A stretch of 64,000 nucleotides of DNA from Escherichia coli. Lineage in GTDB: Bacteria; Pseudomonadota; Gammaproteobacteria; Enterobacterales; Enterobacteriaceae. The DNA is taken from assembly GCF_001677475.2 (NCBI RefSeq), contig NZ_CP015229.1; one strand, written 5' to 3'. Both the position numbers and the translations under genes were made by a program. The notes below the pieces were generated by a model. That model saw nothing but the letters and a program-made list of their open reading frames with translations. It was not told the origin of the DNA and did not search any database. Below, one piece after another: positions 18,055 to 18,640 of the stretch (positions within the stretch are counted from its first letter, which is position 1; each line of letters begins with the position of its first letter).

Positions 18055-18234
18055 CTATTCCTGCTCTTTGGCCTTGCGTCGCTGGCGGCGTTTGATCTCG
18101 CCTTGCATTGACGCAATGATGAATTGTGATGTGCTTTCGCCTGATTCTTTCACTGATTCCATGGCGTTTACTATTTCGTGTGGTACACGAGCCTTTAGAG
18201 CTTGTGATTTTGCGTTTGTTGTACCCGTTGCCAT
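18055..18234 (-). CDS. small (59-aa) DNA-binding-like protein, candidate island repressor
   Basis: Internal ATG of ORF 18055-18408 preceded by GAGGA SD (MATGTTNAKSQALKARVPHEIVNAMESV...KRRQRRKAKEQE); divergent from the replication operon; operator-like repeats immediately upstream. Confidence 0.55.
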   Translation of the reverse strand: MATGTTNAKSQALKARVPHEIVNAMESVKESGESTSQFIIASMQGEIKRRQRRKAKEQE

Positions 18235-18300
18235 TTCTATTCCTCTGTTGGATTGGTGGGGGACAGTATACACAGAAAAAGCACAAATAAAACTCTTAAT

Positions 18301-18340
18301 GTGGACCACACCTAGAGCATATAGTGGGCCACACCTTGAG
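18301..18340. promoter_or_regulatory. two operator-like repeats GTGGNCCACACCTNGAG
   Basis: 18301-18317 and 18324-18340; each contains a GTGG.CCAC dyad; sits in the divergent intergenic region. Confidence 0.5.
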
Positions 18341-18433
18341 GTTATCAAGGTGCATAAATGCAAAGCCCCGCAAGTGTCGTTACCACTCGCAGGGCTTCTA
18401 ACCACCAACGATAGCAGAAGTATCGAGGTAGCT

Positions 18434-18640
18434 ATGTTAAATCATACCACACACCCGCAAGGGCGGGACTCGCACAACCTGAATAAATACATCTGGCGTT
18501 TTATCGCTCTGAGCACGGCACAACCGCGCGTGATTACCATTGAGGCCACCAGCGAACAGGAAGCACGTCAGCAATCTCCTGATGGCTGCGTGATGGTATT
18601 CGCCGCCCGTATTCGTCAGGAGGTGCGCCATGTGCAATAA
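18434..18640 (+). CDS. hypothetical 68-aa protein (first gene of rightward operon)
   Basis: ATG with GAGGT SD; stop overlaps next start (ATGTGCAATAA); part of the 287-aa read-through ORF in the track. Confidence 0.5.
   Translation: MLNHTTHPQGRDSHNLNKYIWRFIALSTAQPRVITIEATSEQEARQQSPDGCVMVFAARIRQEVRHVQ

Follow-up and report, generated by a model that had tools for sequence, protein, structure and literature searches.

The stretch of DNA analysed here (the window) comprises 64,000 nucleotides (nt) of an Escherichia coli chromosome (contig NZ_CP015229.1) with yejM, the tRNA-Pro(GGG) gene (15540-15616) and, farther along, MicF. An 11-kb island is located at the tRNA-Pro gene and is bounded by the direct attachment (att) repeat CTCTCGTGCCGACCAAA at 15602 and 26597. 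Judged by its gene content, it is a Gram-negative phage-inducible chromosomal island (PICI) of the type of EcCICFT073, the prototype of these elements (NC_004431.1, 1377930-1388654). Within the island a minus-strand gene for a protein of 59 amino acids (aa) with a predicted ribbon-helix-helix (RHH) fold is situated divergently to an operon which starts with an Icd-like open reading frame (ORF) and ends with a primase gene (Table 1). This small protein, which probably represses the operon, and its putative operators are the subject of this work.

The minus-strand ORF (ATG at 18234, stop at 18055) encodes a basic protein with a net charge of +4. An earlier note, made from the letters of the window alone, had proposed a switch composed of this protein and two operator-like repeats, and its description of the locus largely holds. 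The Shine-Dalgarno sequence is present, and the terminator placed by the note at 17921-17952 coincides closely with a hairpin followed by a T-run. The intergenic region of 199 bp (18235-18433) indeed contains two 17-bp direct repeats, GTGGACCACACCTAGAG (18301-18317) and GTGGGCCACACCTTGAG (18324-18340), which are identical in 15 of 17 positions, lie 23 bp apart from start to start and can be extended to 22 nt. Their count as operators had to be raised, due to a third, weaker copy (O3), from two to three. The statement that the protein matches no repressor family recognisable by eye is superseded by its assignment to a named family, NCBIfam NF041551. Besides O3 and this assignment, the promoter hexamers under the sites and a structured leader go beyond the earlier description.

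Table 1. Features of the divergent region and of the adjacent island genes (positions in the window; promoters are consensus predictions).
Feature	Position	Strand	Remark
Integrase gene	15807-17066		followed by a small ORF
AlpA-like gene	17566-17772	+	convergent with the RHH gene; PHROG 66/2790
Second terminator-like hairpin	17804-17831	-	leftward
Terminator-like hairpin	17929-17954	-	leftward RHH transcript; 10 pairs, T-run
RHH protein gene	18055-18234	-	59 aa; YlcI/YnfO family
Shine-Dalgarno sequence AGAGGA of the RHH gene	18241-18246	-	6 nt before the ATG; read from the sequence
Putative operator O3, GTGGGGGACAG	18256-18266		weaker copy; starts inside the P_L -10 and covers the predicted start; proposed autorepression site
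Predicted P_L -10, TATACT	18265-18270	-	consensus inference
Predicted P_R -35, TTAATG	18296-18301	+	TTGACG in EcCICFT073, L001 and L002
Putative operator O1, GTGGACCACAC	18301-18311		core of the first repeat; begins at the last -35 base and fills the P_R spacer
Predicted P_R -10, TATAGT	18320-18325	+	18-nt spacer
Putative operator O2, GTGGGCCACAC	18324-18334		core of the second repeat; starts in the last 2 nt of the P_R -10 and extends over the predicted start
Structured 5' leader of the rightward operon	18332-18433	+	RNAfold z = -3.1
Leader hairpin 1	18332-18352	+	
Leader hairpin 2	18363-18397	+	
Near-invariant single-stranded TCTAACCAC	18397-18405	+	in the leader
Leader hairpin 3	18409-18425	+	
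Shine-Dalgarno sequence GAGG of the Icd-like ORF	18425-18428	+	just past hairpin 3; in the hairpin 3 loop in other loci
Rightward operon, presumed controlled	18434-21215	+	Icd-like ORF, two small ORFs, DUF4222, primase
Icd-like ORF	18434-18640	+	first gene of the rightward operon
DUF4222 gene	19114-19413	+	in the rightward operon
Primase gene	19410-21215	+	in the rightward operon

The sites were compared among approximately 50 related loci from some 20 genera, including Escherichia, Yokenella, Xenorhabdus, Pectobacterium, Yersinia, Serratia, Proteus, and Regiella, of which 46 were taken from bacterial contigs with one genome per species and five were added by exact protein look-up. Read outward from the start codon of the RHH gene, a common architecture with three sites at fixed positions was observed. 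O3 adjoins a conserved CAGTATAC and keeps a fixed offset in all loci. After an A-rich stretch, a TTGAC(G) hexamer runs directly into O1, and about two helical turns past O1 a hexamer similar to TATAGT runs into O2; both arrangements recur in about 50 loci. The arms of the sites, GTG...CAC and sometimes CTG...CAG, are largely conserved, while the 5-nt core varies between loci and agrees among the copies of one locus. Examples from other loci are GTGGCTGACAC, GTGTCCGACAC, GTGTTCAACAC, GTGGAGTCCAC, GTGGGTGCCAG, GTGTATTTCAC, GTGGCATTCAC, and GTGTAAGACAC. Many sites are palindromes or near-palindromes of 9-11 bp, as expected for a symmetric dimer, and in several loci O2 is inverted relative to O1. 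O3 is often degenerate; in the E. coli class it is the weakest copy (CC>GG), and perfect versions occur in L003 and L004.

Within the 64-kb window the motif GTGGRCCACAC with at most one mismatch occurs three times, in all cases within 18178-18334, compared to about two expected occurrences scattered over the window. For the proposed operators, the conservation across loci is far stronger evidence than this motif count. A fourth operator-like sequence, GTGTACCACAC (one mismatch, 18178-18188, minus strand), is located inside the RHH coding region and corresponds to the codons of the invariant R-V-P-H; it was not counted as an operator, since the match is probably fortuitous and peculiar to this operator class. 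Elsewhere in the island, only matches with two mismatches at chance level were found.

Promoter hexamers were tallied in 43 dereplicated loci. The predicted -35 of the rightward promoter P_R reads TTGAnn in 42 of them, the window being the sole exception, and is followed after 16-18 nt by a TAnnnT hexamer in 39. For the leftward promoter P_L of the RHH gene, the predicted -10 is TATACT in 28 loci, and A2 and T6 are kept in 38. Each operator overlaps a promoter hexamer by 1-2 nt.

The 59-aa protein matches the YlcI/YnfO model NF041551 with 67.4 bits (cutoff 30; E = 7.9e-19; residues 9-50) as well as PHROG 949, which is annotated as "unknown function"; identical proteins are named YlcI/YnfO family by the NCBI annotation pipeline PGAP. 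The family is narrow: among 1.84 billion representatives, 90 clusters at 50% identity reach E<=1e-3, and a tblastn search with the protein against 50,697 phage records, P4 included, gave no match. Weak Pfam matches of family members mostly concern RHH families, i.e., CB_ParB_C (4e-4, one member), Arc (0.013), PSK_trans_fac, and HicB_lk. An alignment of 35 homologues displays the RHH pattern x-x-A-R-V-P-h-E-h-h-x-x-h-E-x-h-K followed by G-E-S-T-x-Q-F-I-h-x-A-h, in which K9, S10, R16, P18, E33, F38, and E46-R50 are invariant. The conserved G32-E33-S34-T35 corresponds to the RHH turn between the helices (G-x-S/T/N).

In the AlphaFold2 monomer model (predicted local distance difference test, pLDDT, 89), an extended N-terminal segment is followed by helices at residues 19-28 and 35-58, which gives a beta-alpha-alpha topology without helix-turn-helix (HTH). 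The dimer was modelled as a single chain of two copies joined by a Gly/Ser linker. In this fused model, strands, which DSSP calls only when they are hydrogen-bonded, were assigned to residues 10-18 and 94-102 (residues 10-18 of the second copy), with pLDDT >90 for the structured parts and a predicted template modelling score of 0.69; the strands of both copies form, in the model, the antiparallel dimer ribbon of RHH proteins. The predicted elements are thus a beta-strand (10-18), helix A (19-28), helix B (35-58), and a basic C-terminal tail. The question of the earlier note whether the fold is RHH or HTH is answered by both models in favour of RHH, and we predict the protein to be a DNA binder of the Arc/MetJ/CopG superfamily.

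Each variant of the beta-strand (residues 11-15) pairs with its own operator core, across genera. QALKA and QSLKS occur with GTGG(A/G)CCAC, KKLEA and RKLEA with GTGGCTGAC (Xenorhabdus, Pectobacterium, and E. coli), KRFDV with GTGTCCGAC, QT(L/I)AA with GTGTTCAAC (Pectobacterium and Kosakonia), QQIVS with GTGGCATTC, QKMSA with TGGGTGCCA, and QMTTV with GTGTATTTC. The distance between O1 sequences correlates with that between residues 9-17 (Mantel r = 0.43, p = 2e-4), also given the rest of the protein (partial Mantel r = 0.38, p = 2e-4), and the reverse partial test of the rest of the protein against O1 yields r = 0.05 (p = 0.24). Distances between leader DNA sequences show no such relation to the operator class (Mantel r = 0.11, p = 0.08). 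Residues 14 (2.64) and 12 (1.87) show the highest null-corrected mutual information with the operator, and values near 0 were obtained for the equally variable positions 23, 24, 27, 31, and 54-59, among them those in helix A and the tail; residues 35-36, at the start of helix B, which in RHH proteins anchors on the DNA backbone, give a secondary signal. Residues 12 and 14 alternate with the invariant R16 and the hydrophobic residues 13, 15, and 17, and are therefore predicted to lie on the groove-facing side of the strand.

Since shared ancestry inflates the Mantel and mutual-information values, operators were predicted from the beta-strand alone before the sites were looked at, and all three predictions held (L050, L051, and L053). 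For P0032, an E. coli chimera with the strand KKLEA whose C-terminal half is that of the window protein, GTGGCTGACAC was predicted and found at all three sites. In case of P0052 (KRFDV) and P0045 (RQKTA), GTGTCCGACAC and GTGGGAGTCAC, respectively, were predicted and found.

Natural swaps, which are stronger evidence than the statistics, bear on the possibility that the repeats are bound by AlpA or another excisionase, by the integrase (as arm sites) or by the Icd-like protein, with the small ORF as a bystander. AlpA is a known regulator of EcCICFT073-type islands, and PHROG 6196 labels the Icd-like ORF "transcriptional repressor". Between the window and CFT073, the RHH protein is 100% identical and the operators belong to one class, with a single A/G difference in O1, whereas AlpA and the integrase share only 26% and 25% identity, respectively. 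Conversely, CFT073 and L050 have identical AlpA proteins (100%) and Icd-like proteins of approximately 80% identity, but differ in the N-terminal half of the RHH protein and in the operators. Icd types mix freely with operator classes as well. Due to this uncoupling from the operator class, which follows the RHH N-terminal half, AlpA, the integrase, and the Icd-like protein are excluded as readers of the sites; the 59-aa protein is supported as the predicted reader of O1-O3, and the bystander explanation is very improbable. The PHROG 6196 label was most likely inherited from the obsolete protein annotation of P4 cI, the real product of which is the CI RNA, and should not be taken as the function of the Icd-like protein.

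If the RHH protein reads the sites, it might still do so as an activator or dual regulator of P_R, by polymerase recruitment or counter-silencing, as AmrZ and some other RHH proteins activate some promoters and the weak -35 of P_R in the window might need help. We regard this as unlikely, because the location of O1 in the spacer and of O2 over the -10 and the start is occluding and not of the upstream activator type, and because the near-consensus TTGACG of the relatives needs no activator. Also unlikely is the idea that the protein chiefly autoregulates a small leftward operon of antitoxin-like or cargo character, together with a basic ORF of 57-65 aa found downstream of it in some islands, and that any effect on the replication operon is incidental: the window and L001 lack this ORF but keep the RHH gene and all sites, two of the three sites lie on P_R and not on the promoter of the RHH gene, and no toxin family was matched. 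Arrays of short repeats, direct or inverted, are the targets of the RHH proteins Omega and ParG, and together with the flexible orientation of O2 this could point to iterons or a centromere for partition or origin binding instead of transcriptional operators. The sites number only three and each is tied to a promoter hexamer, no ParA-type ATPase is encoded among the island genes, and the island is integrated and excises only upon induction, which makes such a role highly improbable.

Taken together, we favour the reading that the 59-aa protein is the repressor of P_R of the Icd-like/primase operon and an autoregulator of the divergent promoters, to which we assign a probability of about 0.7. 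The proposal of the earlier note, a repressor transcribed away from the replication operon that uses the repeats as operators, is upheld in this respect by the predicted fold, the covariation, the natural swaps, and the promoter overlap; repression itself we infer from the geometry of the sites. An RHH dimer would recognise an 11-bp site of the type GTG-N5-CAC via residues 12 and 14 of the beta-strand and the invariant R16. As O1 fills the P_R spacer and O2 lies over the -10 and the start, bound protein would block RNA polymerase at the promoter of this replication operon and keep the integrated island silent. At the weaker O3, over the -10 and the start of P_L, it would exert negative autoregulation.

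Because an RHH protein of this size has no room for a sensor domain, derepression would have to be imposed from outside the module, either by AlpA induced by the helper, with alpA running towards the RHH gene, or by a helper factor such as an anti-repressor. For EcCICFT073 it was reported that helper phages induce alpA and that AlpA activates its own promoter (PMC6092414). Both hairpins that separate alpA from the RHH gene carry their T-runs on the minus strand only and are thus presumably one-way terminators, which stop leftward and not rightward transcription. Together with the convergent orientation of the genes, this makes it possible that AlpA-driven read-through silences the RHH gene and bypasses P_R, and the layout suggests a convergent-transcription interplay between alpA and the repressor gene.

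Several points weigh against this reading, in addition to the inflation of the covariation statistics mentioned above. O1 and O2 vary in spacing (22-37 bp) and orientation and in this do not resemble the tight tetramer operators bound by Arc or MetJ. P_L has no recognisable -35, and a promoter scanner called neither promoter in the window. With the 59-aa query, Pfam gave no match at E<=0.001, to an RHH family or otherwise, and only a spurious one to Lyase_1, and Foldseek and PDB sequence searches (single sequence and profile) with the protein returned no significant match. A weaker terminator-like hairpin on the plus strand (18186-18206), inside the RHH gene, counts against a simple read-through from alpA. 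Finally, deletion of alpA abolishes the transfer of EcCICFT073, and over-expression of AlpA alone leads to uncontrolled replication (PMC6092414). Since AlpA is required and sufficient for induction, the RHH protein is not the sole gate; it would form no more than one layer of the switch and may have a minor, modulating role.

The more far-reaching claim that the RHH protein fills the vacant place of a master (immunity) repressor in this island and in the classical Gram-negative PICIs is therefore put forward tentatively, and we rather doubt it. If it applies, loss of the protein would result in helper-independent replication, and a helper phage would induce the island when it silences or displaces the RHH protein, via AlpA-driven convergent transcription or an anti-repressor. 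The operator/beta-strand classes, proposed to behave like phage immunity classes, would then represent about 20 or more hetero-immune satellite groups, and a natural set of orthogonal pairs of 59-aa repressors and 11-bp operators with a two-residue recognition code would be at hand. Islands that reside in the same genome (L008/L044, L012/L038/L040/L043, L019/L039/L042, L005/L026, L021/L030, and L045/L048) differ in operator and beta-strand class in 13 of 14 pairs, and Xenorhabdus innexi contains four different classes. This difference fits heteroimmunity, but is only a trend that is underpowered against a background sharing rate of 28% in Xenorhabdus.

The leader of the rightward operon is structured, and compensatory double changes were observed in 9 of the 12 consensus pairs (32 loci). 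Rfam gave no family match for the leader and switch region, at gathering as well as permissive thresholds, and the leader was thereby ruled out as a P4 CI RNA. Possible roles are mRNA stabilisation, a protein or antitermination site (a likeness to boxA/nut sites was considered), or a target of small RNAs.

As in other islands of the EcCICFT073 type (about 10 kb), the window island harbours int, alpA, a primase gene, lambda-like capsid and decoration genes, a terS-like gene, and att flanks. Downstream of the primase gene, ssb, a lambda-E-like major capsid gene, a head-decoration gene, a second AlpA-like gene, a small-terminase-like gene, and a PerC-like gene follow. This gene order is that of EcCICFT073, for which the capsid (c1499) and decoration (c1500) genes have been described (PMC6092414). 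At the position of the RHH gene, EcCICFT073 encodes a "YlcI/YnfO family protein" (WP_000190587.1), 100% identical to that of the window, which carries no original c-number and only the recent PGAP locus tag C_RS30120. Related sequences were detected in 1645 of 5426 complete E. coli genomes. The ssb gene of the window (21745-22200) is frameshifted, with residues 1-88 in one frame and the C-terminal 39 aa in the next. Due to this frameshift and the mutated -35 of P_R, the window copy of the island may be decaying or partly inactivated, with an intact repressor module.

Several further genes were observed. The second AlpA-like HTH gene (23732-24115) is situated between the decoration and terS-like genes, and the PerC-like activator gene (25681-26052) near attR. 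In L002 the Icd-like coding sequence is extended by PGAP to 160 aa and overlaps the RHH gene. In EcCICFT073 and some relatives, the very basic ORF of 57-65 aa mentioned above (PHROG 21027) lies on the strand of the RHH gene, between it and the terminator (L057, i.e., EcCICFT073, 6243-6416; L002, 3156-3353); in the window it is missing between 17955 and 18054. It could be a co-regulated partner of the RHH gene.

According to the founding paper on Gram-negative PICIs, it is "unclear" whether they possess a global repressor (PMC6092414). The RHH protein is probably the repressor described as missing in published work on EcCICFT073-type islands. In the searchable literature, with subscription-only papers outside the scope, neither a mention of the EcCICFT073 RHH ORF nor a description of its function was found. 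The "repressor" of EcCIMP1 was considered as an equivalent and rejected as an unrelated PerC-like protein. RHH repressors acting on repeats over promoters are textbook knowledge (Arc/Mnt, CopG, and omega), and the proposed switch introduces no new principle. New in the searchable literature are, as predicted here, an RHH repressor candidate in the prototype Gram-negative PICI, its operator map, and a two-residue specificity signature. For satellite biologists, a repressor with three mapped operators would be a direct and cheap way to study the silence of satellites and a handle on how helper phages or AlpA overcome it. It would also provide a probable function for a "y-gene" family, and the co-varying pairs of residues 12/14 and operator cores could serve as a specificity series in synthetic circuits or in work on RHH recognition.

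Within its own family, the protein shares the NCBIfam N-terminal model with YlcI of DLP12 and YnfO of Qin from E. coli K-12, which are RHH-like by sequence pattern and for which no published function was found in the literature searched. The similarity between YlcI and the window protein is marginal in BLASTP (E = 0.17), and ylcI is located beside a lambda-type cos site and nohD of a lambdoid prophage and not in a divergent promoter region. YlcI of DLP12 (L055, 4252-4446) contains the RHH-like sequence NIRFPNQMIEQINIALEQKGSGNFSAWVIEACRRRL.

Compared to Arc/Mnt of phage P22 (immI), no sequence relationship beyond the fold is detectable. Arc binds one 21-bp operator as a tetramer, whereas the island has three separate 11-bp sites 22-37 bp apart; the island protein also differs in its long basic helix B and tail, and its presumed target is the replication operon of a phage satellite. 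Among the plasmid RHH repressors of the CopG/CopA type and Omega of pSM19035, Omega uses contiguous 7-bp heptads, in contrast to the 11-bp island sites, which lie about two helical turns apart and are fused to the -35 and -10 hexamers. Stl/Rpr of SaPIs and Gram-positive PICIs are likewise encoded divergently from the excision/replication operon and lack an SOS-cleavable domain (PMC6092414), and this divergent layout is found in the window as well as in EcCICFT073. Homology to Stl/Rpr was not observed: Stl is a large protein that combines an HTH with a domain for the capture of helper-phage proteins, while the 59-aa RHH protein has neither an HTH nor a second domain. Phage lambda differs by the HTH fold of CI/Cro, and in the island a Cro-like partner is not evident and RecA-dependent cleavage is impossible. 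Similar to the island, lambda OR has three operators in a divergent promoter region, the weakest of which lies on the promoter of the repressor gene, and lambdoid heteroimmunity is based on many repressor/operator classes swapped by recombination, as indicated here by chimeric RHH genes such as that of L050.

The closest match in gene order is the left operon of P4, a syntenic module in which vis (AlpA-like) is followed by PLE, seqA, and CI RNA, an ORF of the Icd-like PHROG, and the alpha primase gene. The P4 ORF of this PHROG (L049) extends from 8168 to 8584, and the Rfam C4 match from 8420 to 8507. With P4 as positive control, the Rfam models C4 (CI RNA, RF01695) and isrK (seqA, RF01394) scored 74.9 and 60.8 bits, respectively; neither matched the window, even at E<=10, nor EcCICFT073, L001, or L050. 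For some Gram-negative PICIs, Mageeney et al. noted "immunity repressor RNAs" in this zone and mention no such protein (PMC10111431). P4 immunity is based on antisense RNA, whereas the island holds the RHH protein gene in the same slot. Because of this shared position and the absence of C4 and isrK RNAs from these islands, the RHH module looks like a protein-based alternative in the immunity slot of P4.

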